The notes below the pieces were generated by a model, which saw only the letters and a program-made list of their open reading frames with translations, was not told the DNA's origin and searched no databases. Below are positions 239-7,005 of a DNA stretch of 39,282 nt, one piece after another. How positions within the stretch are numbered: position 1 is the first letter of the stretch; every line of letters starts with the position of its first letter. Both the position numbers and the translations under genes were made by a program. The stretch covers positions 1 through 39,282 of the forward strand of contig DASVLW010000015.1 in NCBI GenBank assembly GCA_036384675.1. The letters run 5' to 3'. Source of the DNA: Minisyncoccota bacterium. Lineage in GTDB: Bacteria > Patescibacteriota > Minisyncoccia > Phycocordibacterales > Phycocordibacteraceae.

Positions 239-670
239 ATGAAGCTTGGACATCTGCGACGCGGTTTCACCCTCATCGAACTCCTCGTCGTGATCGCGAT
301 TATCGGCATCCTCTCGTCCGTCGTTCTCGCCTCGCTCAACACGGCGCGCACGAAGGGCAATTACGCGGCGGTGAAGTCGAACCTCTCGACCATCCAGACG
401 CAGGCGGAACTTGACTACGACGCCGCGCCGAACAGCTACGGCACCGTCACGTCCGCCGGCACCTGCGGCGGCACCGGCATGTTCGCGGACAACACCATCC
501 TCGGCGCTGTCGCTTCGGCGCGCAGCGCGGGCGGTACGATGAGCTGCAACACCAACGGCACGGCATACGTAGTGTGGTCCACGACATCGGGTGCGACGTG
601 GTGCATCGACAGCCGCGGCGTCTCGACGACGACCATTCCAGGCTCGAGCAGCGCGACGTCCTGCTACTAA
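239..670 (+). CDS. Type IV pilin (major pilin candidate, paralogue 1) with a prepilin-type N-terminal cleavage/methylation signal
   Basis: MKLGHLRR-GFTLIELLVVIAIIGILSS class III signal (G/F cleavage site, Glu at +5). Small size, and a C-terminal Cys pair (WCIDSRG...SCY). The ATG at 239 is preferred over the GTG at 128 because it gives a short basic leader. Confidence 0.9.
   Translation: MKLGHLRRGFTLIELLVVIAIIGILSSVVLASLNTARTKGNYAAVKSNLSTIQTQAELDYDAAPNSYGTVTSAGTCGGTGMFADNTILGAVASARSAGGTMSCNTNGTAYVVWSTTSGATWCIDSRGVSTTTIPGSSSATSCY
266..405 (+). repeat. 140-nt block 100 percent identical to 846-985 (N-terminal coding part of pilin paralogues 1 and 2)
   Basis: Base-by-base comparison of the two stretches. 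A second identical 54-nt block is at 581-634 = 1161-1214. Confidence 0.95.
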
Positions 671-690
671 TTCCCGGGTTCGGGCGAGAA

Positions 691-718
691 AAAGCGGCCT
701 CTCGGAGGCCGCTTTTTC
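691..718 (+). terminator. Rho-independent terminator after pilin 1
   Basis: gcggcctc-tcg-gaggccgc hairpin (694-712) preceded by an A-run and followed by tttttc. Confidence 0.8.
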
Positions 719-806
719 TTTCCCCAGAGGCGCGGCATCCCTGCCAGGCGGTCGTATATACTGAATGCAATAGCGCCTGCCGCTATCAACCTTATCCTTC
801 TCACTT

Positions 807-1247
807 ATGATCAATACCCACCAGCGCCGCGCTCTCGAACGAGGCTTCACCCTCATCGAACTCCTCGTCGTGATCGCGATTATCGGCATCCTCTCGTCCG
901 TCGTTCTCGCCTCGCTCAACACGGCGCGCACGAAGGGCAATTACGCGGCGGTGAAGTCGAACCTCTCGACCATCCAGACGCAGGCCGAGCTCGACTACGA
1001 TGCTGCCAACAGCTACGGAGCGAATACCTCGACCGACGCCTGCACCGGCTCGACCGGCATGTTCGCCGACGCGACGGTCCTCGGCGCTATCCGTTCGGCG
1101 GCGAGCGCGGGCGGCACCATGAAGTGCAATTCCACCGCAAGCGCGTATGCCGTCTGGTCAACGACATCGGGTGCGACGTGGTGCATCGACAGCCGCGGCG
1201 TCTCGACGACGACCGTTCCAGGAACCGGACAGACACAGTGCTACTAG
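807..1247 (+). CDS. Type IV pilin (major pilin candidate, paralogue 2)
   Basis: MINTHQRRALER-GFTLIELLVVIAIIGILSS signal. The N-terminal 60 aa and C-terminal WSTTSGATWCIDSRGVSTTT are shared with pilin 1, while the central region diverges. Confidence 0.9.
   Translation: MINTHQRRALERGFTLIELLVVIAIIGILSSVVLASLNTARTKGNYAAVKSNLSTIQTQAELDYDAANSYGANTSTDACTGSTGMFADATVLGAIRSAASAGGTMKCNSTASAYAVWSTTSGATWCIDSRGVSTTTVPGTGQTQCY
846..985 (+). repeat. Second copy of the 140-nt identical block (see 266-405)
   Basis: Direct sequence comparison. Confidence 0.95.
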
Positions 1248-1344: not shown

Positions 1345-2070
1345 ATGTTCGTTTTAGGCGCGATACTCGCGAGCTTCGCGGGCGTCATCGCGGGGCGCCT
1401 TAACACGGGGCAGTCATGGGCGCGCGGCCGCTCCCGGTGCGACGCCTGCGCGCGCACGCTCGCACTCGCGGACCTCTTCCCGGTGCTCTCATGGCTCGCC
1501 TCAGGCGGACGCTGCCGCGGCTGCGGCGCCCGGATACCGGTCGCAAGCCCGCTCGGCGAAGCGGCGCTCGGCGCCGCGTTCGCGTGGGCGTACCTGAGTA
1601 TCGGCTTCGCGCCCGCACTCCTGCCGTTCCTCGCTGCGCTGGTGGTGCTGTGCGCGCTCGTGCTTTATGATCTGGCCCACACCATCGTCCCGCCGGGCCT
1701 GTCCGCGCTCCTCGCGCTCCTCGCGCTCGCGTATGCCGCCGTCGCGACCGCGAGCTGGGCGTCGTTCGGTCTCGCGCTCGCTATCGCCGGCGCCATCGCG
1801 CTCGCACTCGCGCTGCTGCACCTGCTGTCGGGCGGCCGCGCCATGGGACTCGGCGACGCGCCGGTCGCGTTCTCGCTCTCGCTGCTTGCGGCGCCGTACG
1901 CGCTTGCCGGCCTCGCGTTCTCGTTCTGGATAGGCGCGGCCGTCGGCGTGCTCATCCTCGCGGGAAAGCCCCGGGGACAGCGGGCGGGCACGGAAGTCCC
2001 GTTCGTTCCATTCCTCGCCGCAGGATTCCTGCTCGCGTGCTTTACTCATATAAATCCTTTCCCATGGTAG
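1345..2070 (+). CDS. pilD: Prepilin peptidase (A24 family, PilD-like)
   Basis: N-terminal CDAC...CRGC zinc-type motif, polytopic Ala/Leu-rich membrane body, candidate catalytic Asp contexts LYDLAHT and GLGDAP. Embedded between pilin genes. The start is taken at ATG 1345 (in-frame GTG 1321 is possible). The longer ORF from 1147 overlaps pilin 2 and is rejected. Confidence 0.85.
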   Translation: MFVLGAILASFAGVIAGRLNTGQSWARGRSRCDACARTLALADLFPVLSWLASGGRCRGCGARIPVASPLGEAALGAAFAWAYLSIGFAPALLPFLAALVVLCALVLYDLAHTIVPPGLSALLALLALAYAAVATASWASFGLALAIAGAIALALALLHLLSGGRAMGLGDAPVAFSLSLLAAPYALAGLAFSFWIGAAVGVLILAGKPRGQRAGTEVPFVPFLAAGFLLACFTHINPFPW

Positions 2071-2549: not shown

Positions 2550-5500
2550 ATGGTGGTAATGCCCGCCTTGTTCCATGCGCGCCTGAAGCGCTTGCAGCGT
2601 ATGAACGACCGGAAGCCGCTCCGGGGCTTCACGCTCATCGAGATGCTCGTCGTGCTCGCCATCATCGTCGTCATCAGCGCCATCGTGTTCACCGGGGAGA
2701 ACAATTTCAACCGCTCGTTCTTCATCACCAACACCGTGTATGACGTCGCGCTCACCCTGCGCCAGGCGCAGACGTACGGTCTCTCGAGCCAGGCGTACGG
2801 GGCGACGCAGAATGCGGGATACGGCATTTATATAAGCAATGAGTCGCCGTCGACGTACGTCATGTTCGCCGACGTGGGCGGCAGCGATCCGCCGGACAAC
2901 TGCGACACCGGCACGGCCGGGACCCCGACCGCGAAGCCTGGCAACTGCCTCTATGACGGCGCGGGGGAGCAGGTCCAGTCGTTCACGCTCGGCAACGGCT
3001 TCGCCATCACGAATTTCTGCATCGTCCCGGCCAGCGGCTCGGCGAATTGCTATACGCCCGCAGACGATCCCACGCAGGCGCTTTCCATGGTGTTCTCGCG
3101 CCCCAATGAAGACGCCATCATCAATACCGTGTCGGGCAGCGGCAGCGCGACGGTCGCGACGAGCGCATGCTTCACCATATCCGACTCCGTCGGCGACAGC
3201 CGCTACGTATCGGTCGCGCAATCCGGGCGCGTTGCCATCGCGGCGGGCTGTGATGCCGACCAGCTGAGCGGCGGAGGCGGCAGCACCGGCGGCGACGGCA
3301 GCGGCGGACTCGGCGGCGGTTCACCCGCGCCGCACTGCACGCTCGTCGCGGACCCTTCTTCCATTTCGGCGGGAGATTCTTCGGGGCTTACGCTCAATTC
3401 GACCAACGCGACGAGCGCATCCATAGACCATGACGTGGGTCCGGTCGGCGTCAACAGCACGAAATCCGTCTCGCCGACGGAGACGACGCTCTATACGGCG
3501 ATTGTGAACGGGCTCGGCGGCTCGAGCACCTGTACGGCGGCCATAACGGTCACGGCGCCGCAGCCGACATGCACGCTCACCCTGTCGCCGACATCGATAT
3601 CTGCCGGCGGCTCCTCGACGCTCACGTGGGACACGACGGGCGCCACGAGCATCAATATCGACAACGGCATCGGCAGCAAGACGCCGGTCGGCCACGGCAC
3701 CATGACGGTATCGCCGTCGAGCGACACCACATATACCGCGACGGCGGCGGGGCCGGGCGGCAGCACCAATTGCACCGCGTCGCTCAGCGTCACGGCGTCG
3801 CAGCTGAAGACTATTTTCCTCACGTCCGGTACATCGTGGACTGTGCCGGCAGACTGGGACAATGCCCATAATTCCATCGAGGTCATCGGCGGCGGCGGCT
3901 CGGGAGCGGCAGCGGGTGTCGGTTCGCACGGTGGCGGTGGCGGTGGCGCGTACGCGCTCGTCTCCGCCCGCACGCTGACGCCGGGCGCACACATCACGTA
4001 CCAGGTCGGTCCGGGCGGCACGGGCGTCGCGCAAAGCAATCCGGGCAATGGCGGCGGCGACACCTATTTCAACGGTACCGGCACGACCTGCGCGAGTCAG
4101 ATGGTTTGCGCCAAGGGAGGGCAAGGCGGACAGGTCGCGAGCGCCGGCGCTGGCGGTGCCGCGGCAAGCTCAATTGGTTCAACCAGATATTCCGGCGGTG
4201 CCGGCAGTTACGGGGCTGGTGGCGGATCGAACGGCGGCGGCGCAGCCGGGCCTAATGGCGACGGTGGTGCGGGCACTAGCAGCGCGGGCGGCACGGCGGA
4301 TGCGGGCGACGGCGGTGCCGGCGGCAAATCCGGATTGCTTCCAGGCGGCAATGGCACCGAATGGGATTCGACTCACGGTGCCGGCGGCGGCGGATACAGT
4401 GTCGCAGGTGTCAACACGACCGGAGTCGGCGGCAATTACGGCGGCGGCGGCGGCCGCGGAAACACCCAGAGCGCGGCAGGAGCGCAGGGTCTCATCGTCA
4501 TCATGTATGGCGGAAACGCCGGCGCGGGCGGCGTCGGGGGCGGCACCGAAACCCAGCCGGCTCCTACTTGTACGCTCACTGCGTCGCCGACCGCGATAAA
4601 CGCCGGCGGCTCGTCGATGCTCACTTGGACGACAACGGATGCGACGTCGATCACGATCAGCGGCGGCGTCGGATCGGTGACGCCGGTATCGGGCGGCTCC
4701 ACGACCGTCTCGCCGACCGTCGATACTACGTACACTGCGACAGTCAACGGCGCGGGCGGCAGCGGCAACTGCCAAGCGACGACCATAACCGTCAAGCACA
4801 CCACTCCTCAGACGATATTCCTGACATCTGGGTTCACGTGGACCGTGCCAAGCGATTGGAGTACCACCAATAAGGTCGAAGTAATCGGGCCAGTCGGGGT
4901 AGGCGGCATAGGAAGCAACAATGGTTCCGGAGGCGGCGGCGGCGGCGGATATGCAAGCGTGTCGAATCTTGCGCTCACTTCCGGAACATCGGTCAGCTAT
5001 AGCGTGTCCGGCAATTATTCCTACTTCGGAGCCAGCAGCTGCAATAACGCCTATGTATGCGCCGCCGCCGGCGGCGACGGAGGCTCGAGCGGCACCGCGG
5101 GCGCCGGCGGCGCGGGAATCGTGGGCTCCGTCCTCTTCACGGGCGGCAATGGCGGTACCGGCGATGGCGGCGGCTTCCTGGCCGGATTCGGCGGCGGCGG
5201 CGGCGGCGCGGCCGGCCCGCATGGCAAAGGAGCCAACGGCGGCAATGCCGTGTCTGGAACAGCCGGCGGCGCTGGCGGCAGAGGCGACAACGGTTCAGGA
5301 GGCACCGGAGGTGCGGCAGGGGCCGATGGCAATGCCGGTACCGAATGGGACTCGACGCATGGGTCGGGCGGCGGCGGCGGCGGAGCGAACGGCAACGGCG
5401 GAGGGGGAGGAGGTGGGGGTTTCATAAGCAAATTGCCTGACGATGGCAGTGCGTCCATGCCGGCGTATATGCTTGCCGCTGACAGCCGCCTCGCCTTCGG

Positions 5501-5663
5501 CTGGCTCGACGCTTCGCCGCTCAGGATCGCGGCCGGCGTCGGAGGCAGTGGCGGCGGCCTTTACGGCGCGGGCGGCGGCGGCGGGGGTTCCGGCGGCCCG
5601 GGCATCATCGTTATCACGTATACTCCTGCAACAGGCGGCGGGCATCCTCCAGTATCGCCATAG
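2550..5663 (+). CDS. Giant chimeric pseudopilin. It combines a prepilin signal, a FimT/GspH-like minor pilin domain, three Cys-bounded Ig-like repeats and two glycine-rich domains.
   Basis: RGFTLIEMLVVLAIIVVISAIVF signal. An internal module is duplicated (see findings). Start is uncertain: ATG 2550 has GAGGG 6 nt upstream, and ATG 2601 would give a 9-aa leader. The end is firm. Confidence 0.85.
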   Translation: MVVMPALFHARLKRLQRMNDRKPLRGFTLIEMLVVLAIIVVISAIVFTGENNFNRSFFITNTVYDVALTLRQAQTYGLSSQAYGATQNAGYGIYISNESPSTYVMFADVGGSDPPDNCDTGTAGTPTAKPGNCLYDGAGEQVQSFTLGNGFAITNFCIVPASGSANCYTPADDPTQALSMVFSRPNEDAIINTVSGSGSATVATSACFTISDSVGDSRYVSVAQSGRVAIAAGCDADQLSGGGGSTGGDGSGGLGGGSPAPHCTLVADPSSISAGDSSGLTLNSTNATSASIDHDVGPVGVNSTKSVSPTETTLYTAIVNGLGGSSTCTAAITVTAPQPTCTLTLSPTSISAGGSSTLTWDTTGATSINIDNGIGSKTPVGHGTMTVSPSSDTTYTATAAGPGGSTNCTASLSVTASQLKTIFLTSGTSWTVPADWDNAHNSIEVIGGGGSGAAAGVGSHGGGGGGAYALVSARTLTPGAHITYQVGPGGTGVAQSNPGNGGGDTYFNGTGTTCASQMVCAKGGQGGQVASAGAGGAAASSIGSTRYSGGAGSYGAGGGSNGGGAAGPNGDGGAGTSSAGGTADAGDGGAGGKSGLLPGGNGTEWDSTHGAGGGGYSVAGVNTTGVGGNYGGGGGRGNTQSAAGAQGLIVIMYGGNAGAGGVGGGTETQPAPTCTLTASPTAINAGGSSMLTWTTTDATSITISGGVGSVTPVSGGSTTVSPTVDTTYTATVNGAGGSGNCQATTITVKHTTPQTIFLTSGFTWTVPSDWSTTNKVEVIGPVGVGGIGSNNGSGGGGGGGYASVSNLALTSGTSVSYSVSGNYSYFGASSCNNAYVCAAAGGDGGSSGTAGAGGAGIVGSVLFTGGNGGTGDGGGFLAGFGGGGGGAAGPHGKGANGGNAVSGTAGGAGGRGDNGSGGTGGAAGADGNAGTEWDSTHGSGGGGGGANGNGGGGGGGGFISKLPDDGSASMPAYMLAADSRLAFGWLDASPLRIAAGVGGSGGGLYGAGGGGGGSGGPGIIVITYTPATGGGHPPVSP

Positions 5664-5667
5664 CCCT

Positions 5668-7005
5668 ATGTCGAACCATCATTCTCAGCGCGGATACACC
5701 CTTATTGAACTCATCGTTTCAGTGGGCATATTCAGTATCGTGATGCTGCTCGCGTCCGGCGCGTACCTTTCGCTCATCAGCTACACGCGCGAAGCGCGCG
5801 CCGTGAGCACCGTCATGACGAGCCTTTCATACGGCATCGACCAGATGAGCCGCGAGATACGCACGGGCACCGATTACCAGTGCGGCACCGGCGGCTGCGC
5901 GAACGCATCGTCAATAACGGTTACGAACGACCAGGGGCATACGGTGAGCTACCTGCTCGCGGACGGTGCCATCGCGCGCTGCGTCGACGAATCCGTCTGC
6001 ACGGCGGCTATCGCCGTCCCGCTCACGGATCCGTCCATCGACGTCACGAGCCTCGTTTTCAATGTAAAAGGCAACACGTCGTCGAGCGACGGCGTGCAGC
6101 CCTACGTGACCATGACCGTGCGCGGCGAGGCGGCGGTCGCCGGGGAGTCTCCGGTGCCGTTTTCCATAGAAACATCCGCATCGCAGCGCACGCTCGACCT
6201 CGGCGGCTCTTCGGGCGGTTCCGGCGGCAGCGGGGATGACGGAGGCGGAGACACCGGCGGCGATACGTTCGCTACCGGCGGCACGGTGACGCAGAGCGGG
6301 GGATACACCATTCATACGTTCACGTCGAACGGCACCTTTACACCGACGACATCCGGCACGGTCGACGTGCTCGTCATCGGCGGCGGCGGCGGGGGAGGCA
6401 GCGGCAACAGCACGCAGTGCGTGATGGGCGGCGGCGGCGGCGCGGGAGGATTCGTCTATCAGGCCGGTGTCGCGGTGAGCGCCCAGTCTTACTCCATCAC
6501 GGTCGGTGCCGGCGGCCAGGGCGGATGGAGCGGCGCGCTCAATAATGGTGTCAACGGCGGGAGCAGTTTCTTCGGTTCGGTCGTCGGCGCGAACGGCGGC
6601 GGCGGCGGCGGATATGGAAACTGCAGCGGCGCAGGCGGTTCGGGTTCCGTGGGTGCGTCCGGCGGCGGCGGCGGATACGGCACCGGCGGCACGGTCAGCG
6701 GCGGCGCGGGAGGAACCGGCGGCCATAACGGTGCGACGAGCCAAACCGGCGGCACGTCTGGCGGCGGCGGCGGCGCGGGCGCTGCGGCGACCAGCGGTAT
6801 CGGCGGCGCGGGCGCATCCAACACCATATCGGGCTCAGCCGTTACGTATGCCACCGGTGGGCAGGGCAACACCACCGGTCTCACGGCAGGCGTCACGTCG
6901 CCGGCCGCGGCGGCAAACACCGGCAACGGCGGCGCAGGCGGCTGGAGCGCGACGGGCGGCAACGGCGGCTCGGGCATCGTGATAATCCGCTACCCGACGC
7001 CATGA
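5668..7005 (+). CDS. PilW/GspJ-like pseudopilin fused to a C-terminal glycine-rich domain
   Basis: MSNHHSQR-GYTLIELIVSVGIFSIVML signal. The C-terminal part (nt 6268-7002) begins GGYTIHTFTSNGTFTPTTSGTVDVLVIGGGGGGG and ends GGSGIVIIRYPTP, like the domains of the preceding gene. The ATG lies 5 nt after the upstream stop. Confidence 0.88.
   Translation: MSNHHSQRGYTLIELIVSVGIFSIVMLLASGAYLSLISYTREARAVSTVMTSLSYGIDQMSREIRTGTDYQCGTGGCANASSITVTNDQGHTVSYLLADGAIARCVDESVCTAAIAVPLTDPSIDVTSLVFNVKGNTSSSDGVQPYVTMTVRGEAAVAGESPVPFSIETSASQRTLDLGGSSGGSGGSGDDGGGDTGGDTFATGGTVTQSGGYTIHTFTSNGTFTPTTSGTVDVLVIGGGGGGGSGNSTQCVMGGGGGAGGFVYQAGVAVSAQSYSITVGAGGQGGWSGALNNGVNGGSSFFGSVVGANGGGGGGYGNCSGAGGSGSVGASGGGGGYGTGGTVSGGAGGTGGHNGATSQTGGTSGGGGGAGAAATSGIGGAGASNTISGSAVTYATGGQGNTTGLTAGVTSPAAAANTGNGGAGGWSATGGNGGSGIVIIRYPTP

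Follow-up and report, generated by a model that had tools for sequence, protein, structure and literature searches.

The window analysed here, 39,282 bases in length, is the beginning of contig C15 of genome G000, an assembly of 665 kb in 82 contigs that is 95.6% complete. Near its left end, it carries two type IV pilin genes arranged in tandem on the forward strand. Pilin gene 1 (239-670) encodes 143 aa. Its leader (239-265) is followed by G/FTLIE, with the slash marking the cleavage site, and the protein matches the N_methyl family PF07963 with an E value of 2.7e-9. Pilin gene 2 (807-1247) encodes 146 aa, has its leader at 807-845 in front of the same G/FTLIE and matches PF07963 with an E value of 1.2e-8. 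Both proteins display the prepilin motif, MKLGHLRRG/FTLIELL in pilin 1 and MINTHQRRALERG/FTLIELL in pilin 2: a short basic leader, Gly, F-T-L-I-E and Glu at +5. They are 83% identical at the amino-acid level. Homologues retrieved by protein search bear the labels Kaiserbacteria, Paceibacterota or Patescibacteria; the genome is that of an ultrasmall, uncultured member of the Paceibacterota. A profile search matched solved type IV pilins, e.g. 6xxd (4.9e-12) and 5kua (1.4e-8). An AlphaFold (AF2) model built from a 57-sequence alignment (pLDDT 85.5) predicts a lollipop: residues 12-62 form a helix, which is followed by a loop containing a short helix and by strands at 100-105, 110-115 and 120-124. 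Foldseek found no significant match to this model in the PDB; the top two matches were still pilins. Four cysteines are invariant in the alignment of the pilin family. Both genes are complete, separately terminated type IV pilin genes, of the T4a-like class with a class III signal peptide. Their small size, their position by pilC and pilD and the terminator that each possesses suggest that they encode major pilins, the main filament subunits.

Identical blocks around a divergent core

At an offset of 580 nt, the sole long exact runs between the two genes are one of 140 nt and one of 54 nt; only runs of 8-14 nt occur in between. The first block, R1, extends from 266 to 405 in pilin 1 and from 846 to 985 in pilin 2 (0/140 differences). 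Its product is the stretch of mature residues 1-46, which makes up most of the alpha-1 helix and maps to helix residues 10-55 of the model. The second block, R2, is located at 581-634 and 1161-1214 (0/54 differences) and encodes the end of strand beta-2, strand beta-3 and the loop around Cys122, which in the model follows this residue. The two blocks enclose the core, present as type 1 in pilin 1 (406-580) and as type 2 in pilin 2 (986-1160). It takes in the last part of alpha-1 together with the alpha-beta loop and the two strands beta-1 and beta-2. The two core types differ at 48 of 172 aligned sites and by two 3-nt indels. The leaders are unlike and the DNA upstream of the two genes is unalignable. 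The first-pass annotation, made from the sequence alone, had described both blocks, a diverged middle of about 175 nt with indels encoding the alpha-beta loop and beta region, different leaders and upstream regions and a terminator for each gene. All of this stands.

When the positions of the differences were shuffled, an identical run of at least 140 was obtained in 0 of 100,000 trials. The start of R1 coincides with the first codon of the mature protein, i.e. with the Phe behind the G/F cleavage site. Both edges of R1 and of R2 sit at synonymous differences, and protein identity runs on for several residues beyond them. Therefore, the edges resemble the ends of recombination tracts and not the limits of a constraint on the protein. 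Synonymous divergence jumps at these ends. It is zero in R1 (0 differences at 37.3 synonymous sites) and in R2 (0 at 14.7 sites), with dN also 0 in both, compared with a dS of 1.0-1.1 in the core (24 differences at 43 sites) and 0.93 in the C-terminal tail.

The comparison of dN/dS between core and flanks, which had been recommended along with the description, also revealed the character of the core. Here dN is 0.21 and dN/dS is about 0.2, in the tail dN is 0.48 and dN/dS 0.52. The core thus represents an old divergence under purifying selection rather than a hypervariable patch that evolves fast. No positive selection was seen in it, with a dN/dS of 0.2-0.3 both between paralogues and between orthologues.

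For the comparison with sister strains, relatives were collected by protein search and contig look-ups. It covers three strains: W, the strain of the window, with pilins 1 and 2 as W1 and W2, as well as B and C, which are represented by short metagenome contigs. Strain B is a megahit contig (L051) that carries pilin 1' and then the start of pilin 2'; strain C (L046) contributes pilin 2''. One pilin before pilD is found in each of two relatives that are more distant, D (L044/L045) and E (L043, with the end of pilC visible upstream). In scans of sequence collections with a 32-nt word from R1, a single JGI contig matched, that of relative E; the genome contig collection yielded no match.

In the core, the orthologues W1 and B1 (30/175 differences) and W2 and C2 (32/175) are closer to each other than the paralogues W1 and W2 (48/172), so that the duplication predates the split of the strains. 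Core type 2 is closest to strain C and to the single-gene relative D (41/175), not to core type 1. In the blocks, the relationship is reversed. Within one genome R1 is identical, 0/140 between W1 and W2 and 0/116 between B1 and B2, and B1 and C2 also agree at 140 of 140 sites while differing at 52/172 sites in the core and 15/54 in R2. Between strains, R1 differs at 4/140 sites both for W1-B1 and for W2-C2, and all four differences between W and B/C are synonymous. When polarised with D and E, the W-type and the B-type derived states are each common to both paralogues. R2 is identical between paralogues only in the strain of the window; orthologues differ there by 17-28% (11/54 for W1-B1, 9/54 for W2-C2). 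In R2, both window copies show one patchwork made up of type-1-like as well as type-2-like states. From these comparisons, the blocks appear to have been homogenised after the strain split, R2 in the lineage of the window only.

This is concerted evolution: in the tracts, paralogues within a genome are closer than orthologues, and in the core the reverse is true. Gene conversion or recombination, to which the flank identity had been ascribed at the outset, is well supported for the window pilins. The further suggestions of the first-pass annotation fared differently. A shuffling of variable cores is not supported, since each of the core types 1 and 2 forms a stable orthologous lineage, and inspection of cassette diversity in relatives showed both types maintained in the three strains W, B and C with no sign of shuffling. 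Antigenic variation or switching between two pilin types is not supported either: the cores are purified (dN/dS about 0.2), and neither silent nor truncated cassettes are present in the genome. When the whole 665-kb assembly was searched at the DNA and protein level, no further close or truncated pilin copy was detected.

The same mosaic is found elsewhere in the genus. Pilin homologues are present in 23 of 24 other genomes, many of which have two to five in tandem, and most tandem pairs have common runs of just 20-50 nt. The most informative case is G017, a closed one-contig genome of about 1 Mb. Here pilT-pilC is followed by three pilins (A, B, C), by a fourth that an inserted open reading frame (ORF) splits, by a further pilin and by pilD. 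A and B have identical bodies, B and C have the spacer, the leader and an N-terminal block of 179-197 nt in common. The cores of B and C are divergent, and their C-terminal block is nearly identical again, so the A/B-C pair has the layout of the window: N-terminal block, divergent core, C-terminal block. G017 contains an exact 668-nt direct repeat with a period of 489 nt (489 plus the 179 nt of R1), and copy B combines C's leader with A's body. To judge from this arrangement, the three-gene array is the duplication product expected from unequal crossover in the N-terminal block of a two-gene ancestor. Exact N-terminal blocks also occur in G018 (95 nt) and in G030, which belongs to another family (79 nt, with further exact blocks of 40 and 26 nt).

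In the fourth, split pilin of G017 (L059, G017:C1:618000-628000 reverse strand, about 4880-6400), a 51-aa N-terminal and a C-terminal piece flank an ORF of 307 aa, which looks like an inserted mobile-element gene.

Origin of the mosaic

With a probability of about 0.8, the window contains two old tandem major pilins that were recently homogenised in two tracts by RecA-type interlocus gene conversion and that most likely co-assemble or are used together. Homologous recombination machinery is present, as RecA is encoded at G000:C8:10221-11006 (445 bits). RecA-type conversion would have recently copied the 140-nt tract for residues 1-46, the alpha-1 helix of the filament core, from one pilin gene to the other, and likewise a second tract of 54 nt for the last part of the beta-sheet, where a conserved cysteine lies. 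In the alpha-beta loop, in the first strands and in the C-terminal tail, two old, purified types would persist. Both genes are probably expressed, and the outcome would be two subunits that suit one peptidase and one filament core and display different surfaces. By analogy with PilE1/PilE2 of Streptococcus sanguinis, they most likely co-assemble or serve side by side. The identical blocks are at the same time substrates for unequal crossover, by which the copy number changes and leaders are recombined with other bodies, as the array of G017 shows.

Several points weigh against this reading. Even between orthologues (L051, L046, L044, L043), synonymous divergence in R1 is 3-5 times below that of the core (dS 0.12-0.26 vs 0.5-0.8), which points to a codon- or nucleotide-level constraint or to an exchange of R1 between strains. 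Because of this slower rate, the naive probability of 1e-14 for zero differences in R1 is too small; with a four-fold slower rate we estimate it at about 3e-4. The four diagnostic sites of R1 lie within 31 nt and could go back to one single event. Furthermore, the evidence from strains B and C is drawn from short contigs, and the contig of strain C possibly contains a strain switch at a 68-nt common stretch. Up to 913 it matches the window at 100% identity, and beyond this point it diverges. It may be an inter-strain recombinant, or the assembler may have switched strains in the 68-nt stretch, which is longer than k, with the same appearance.

A contig from a near-identical strain (L058, sample ..435; 17 SNPs in 3.1 kb) has the sister-strain base C at window position 914, a diagnostic R1 site in pilin 2. 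This contig begins at 495 and covers only the pilin 2 copy of R1.

How could the mosaic have arisen otherwise? A recent, perfect tandem duplicate might have acquired a divergent core cassette from another strain via its conserved flanks. Candidate phyla radiation (CPR) bacteria carry type IV pilus and competence machinery, the pilin core varies strongly between strains, core 2 is nearer to the single-gene relative D than to core 1, and the contig of strain C resembles window-identical DNA joined to a divergent allele inside R1. However, this join is perhaps the assembly strain switch mentioned above, and after a recent duplication one would not expect that leaders, 5' regions and C-terminal tails differ as well. 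Strain B has both genes with both leader types, so the pair predates the split of W and B, and yet R1 is still identical within each strain. The patchwork of type-1 and type-2 states in both copies of R2 does not fit such a history either, which we consider improbable. Far less credible still is that no recombination took place and that the blocks are kept identical by selection at the nucleotide level, be it on the codons of a highly expressed gene, on mRNA structure or on a regulatory RNA. The slow synonymous change of R1 between orthologues would agree with it, but orthologues do differ at synonymous sites in R1 (4-11 of 140) and strongly in R2 (9-24 of 54), whereas paralogues within a genome are identical, and a scan of Rfam, riboswitches included, yielded no family at threshold.

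The first-pass annotation had named the collapse of a repeat during assembly as a possible source of the identity. Strain variants of one gene might have been stitched in tandem, or a repeat collapsed or polished to a consensus. Errors do occur at this locus in the sample series, and the contig of the window starts at a repeat. Still, an artefact is a most implausible origin of the two genes. Their leaders, spacers and terminators differ. Independent assemblies of G000, of sample ..441 and of sample ..435 each yielded the two-gene arrangement, and in strain B the megahit contig likewise runs from pilin 1 into the beginning of pilin 2. Within the series, some contigs stop at 900 and others begin at 351 or 931, exactly where a graph with k=55 branches for a true 140-nt repeat. 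In addition, the closed genome G017 has the same mosaic.

The errors themselves are instructive. Three sister-sample contigs (L047-L049) encode a hybrid pilin, P0001, with leader 1 and the body of pilin 2; they correspond to window positions 1/87-405 joined to 986 onward. P0001 is a cluster representative in public protein collections. The contigs were considered as real 580-bp deletion variants, but are best read as the result of an assembler skipping the loop at the 140-nt repeat. From this reading, an orphan contig comprising the skipped loop was predicted, and it was then found in the same sample as L047 (L063, window 351-900, 550 nt). No such contig was found for samples ..414 and ..443, so that it exists for one of the three hybrid samples; by analogy, the hybrids of these two would be artefacts, too. 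Loop-skipping is most likely the origin of all three hybrids. The candidate recombinant L050 (P0008; leader 2 with a type-1-like core) was rejected since the contig is a chimera (1-1517): a 589-nt pilin cycle is inserted at the 15-nt common word ATGTTCGCGGACAGC into the spacer between a DsbA-like and an ABC-ATPase gene of an unrelated organism. Short-read assemblers thus drop one pilin gene at the 140-nt repeat and deposit the hybrid P0001 in public databases. Because of this loss, the pilin copy number in CPR metagenome-assembled genomes is likely under-counted.

A further possibility, which we regard as unlikely, is that the blocks are the recombination borders of an array of pilins that are all expressed. 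Through frequent unequal crossover and conversion, the population would then comprise subpopulations with one, two or three genes and with new combinations of leader and body or of head and tail. In that case, the host-attachment pilus of an episymbiotic CPR bacterium would be varied within a population, the array of G017 would exemplify these products, and some single-gene variants might be real and exist beside the loop-skipping artefacts.

Surroundings of the pilin pair

Pilins 1 and 2 are placed between pilB-pilT-pilC on the neighbouring contig C53 and the prepilin peptidase gene pilD. C53 abuts the start of the window, to which it is joined at position 1 by the sister-sample contig L053, and carries pilC (PF00482, E 1.7e-30) as well as two T2SSE ATPase genes. 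The pilD gene (1345-2070, forward strand) was called with 241 aa; PilD matches PF06750 (E 2e-21) and PF01478, the latter with an E value of 6e-4, which falls under the Pfam cut-off. An alternative GTG start is located at 1321. A third pilin paralogue follows at 2064-2498 on the same strand. It comprises 144 aa, is 46% identical and has no identical tract in common with pilins 1 and 2. Further downstream, two giant glycine-rich minor pilins, one more minor pilin and a PilX-like protein are encoded.

The spacer between pilC and pilin 1 has a length of 412 nt and contains two dispersed palindromic repeats, which differ from each other and of which five other contigs carry copies. One of them lies at 6-145 (arms 22-47 and 99-124), outside the pilin duplication, forms a hairpin of -74.9 kcal/mol and has copies of 84% identity on contigs C36 and C52 of G000. 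The other is found just upstream of window position 1 (L053, 774-935) and has copies on C20 (98.6%, at a contig end), C40 and C8. These dispersed repeats account for the contig break at the start of the window. Since the upstream palindrome is present in multiple copies, it weighs against a pilin-specific invertible promoter, and a locus-specific inversion system was not found at the pilin locus. No long simple-sequence tract was seen in the sequence by eye.

A scan with the sigma-70 consensus detected no full promoter. Putative -10 motifs on the forward strand are TACAAT at 179-184, 55 nt upstream of pilin 1, and TATACT at 757-762, upstream of pilin 2. The sequence around the former, GCTACAATGG, is kept in the single-gene relative L043. 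The word TATACT-NN-ATGC is found at 757-770 before pilin 2 and at 1309-1322 before pilD; in L043, the related word TATACTCGATGC stands before pilD. Pilin 2 may therefore be served by a duplicate of the promoter region of pilD, and this would mark one edge of the original duplication.

On the same strand, pilin 1 is followed by a strong terminator hairpin at 682-724 (GC stem, TCG loop and T run; -39.6 kcal/mol, z -4.1) and pilin 2 by a likewise strong terminator-like hairpin at 1268-1293 within a fold of -31.3 kcal/mol (z -2.8). A consensus terminator scan missed both. The loop of the pilin 1 terminator (702-704) reads TCG in the window and CGA, its reverse complement, in the sister-sample contigs L056 and L058. 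This difference is either a flipped hairpin loop or an assembly quirk at a palindrome.

Comparison with known systems

Recombination between tandem paralogues for surface proteins has been described for the lpl cluster of Staphylococcus aureus, where a conserved stretch within each ORF is the site of homologous recombination and the unit of rearrangement consists of the 3' part of one ORF, the spacer and the 5' part of the next (Tsuru and Kobayashi, 2008, PMC2568036). The 489-nt unit of G017 and the 580-nt unit of the window fit this scheme exactly. In contrast, the lpl genes encode lipoproteins with one central block, whereas the locus studied here has two blocks in two copies.

The best-known case of gene conversion among pilin sequences is the pilE/pilS system of Neisseria, in which silent cassettes, promoterless and 5'-truncated, pass variable segments on to one expression locus, and do so at high frequency. 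As in the window, conserved stretches flank variable parts of the head, and a segment with a conserved cysteine is among them. However, both window copies are complete and no silent copies were found, and here the conserved parts are exchanged and the variable cores stay in place.

Type IV pili are the main predicted organelle of CPR bacteria for host contact and DNA uptake. Neither gene conversion nor recombination between pilin genes is mentioned in two papers on CPR type IV pili (PMC11623550, PMC13278184).

The closest parallel with respect to function is found in S. sanguinis. Its major pilins PilE1 and PilE2 are 78% identical and both are present in one heteropolymeric filament (PMC6497953), and a structure of the pilus is available (8pfb, bioRxiv 10.1101/2023.06.15.545089). 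Both systems have two major pilin genes that are about 80% identical (78% there, 83% here), with a similar fold and with differences chiefly in the head loops. We take the genes pilE1 and pilE2 to be neighbours; the words 'tandem' and 'duplication' are absent from PMC6497953. Co-assembly was seen in S. sanguinis and is predicted in the CPR bacterium; for the window pilins, nucleotide-identical conversion tracts and a comparison between strains are documented. By this analogy, the window most likely encodes two subunits that are used together and that combine one filament-core helix with two surfaces. As tandem pilin paralogues are often kept in the genus, some of them with a common filament-core helix and distinct heads, it can be hypothesized that two-subunit or alternative pili are in use there. 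The gene conversion of tandem paralogues itself is a textbook process encountered in a new host and not a new mechanism.

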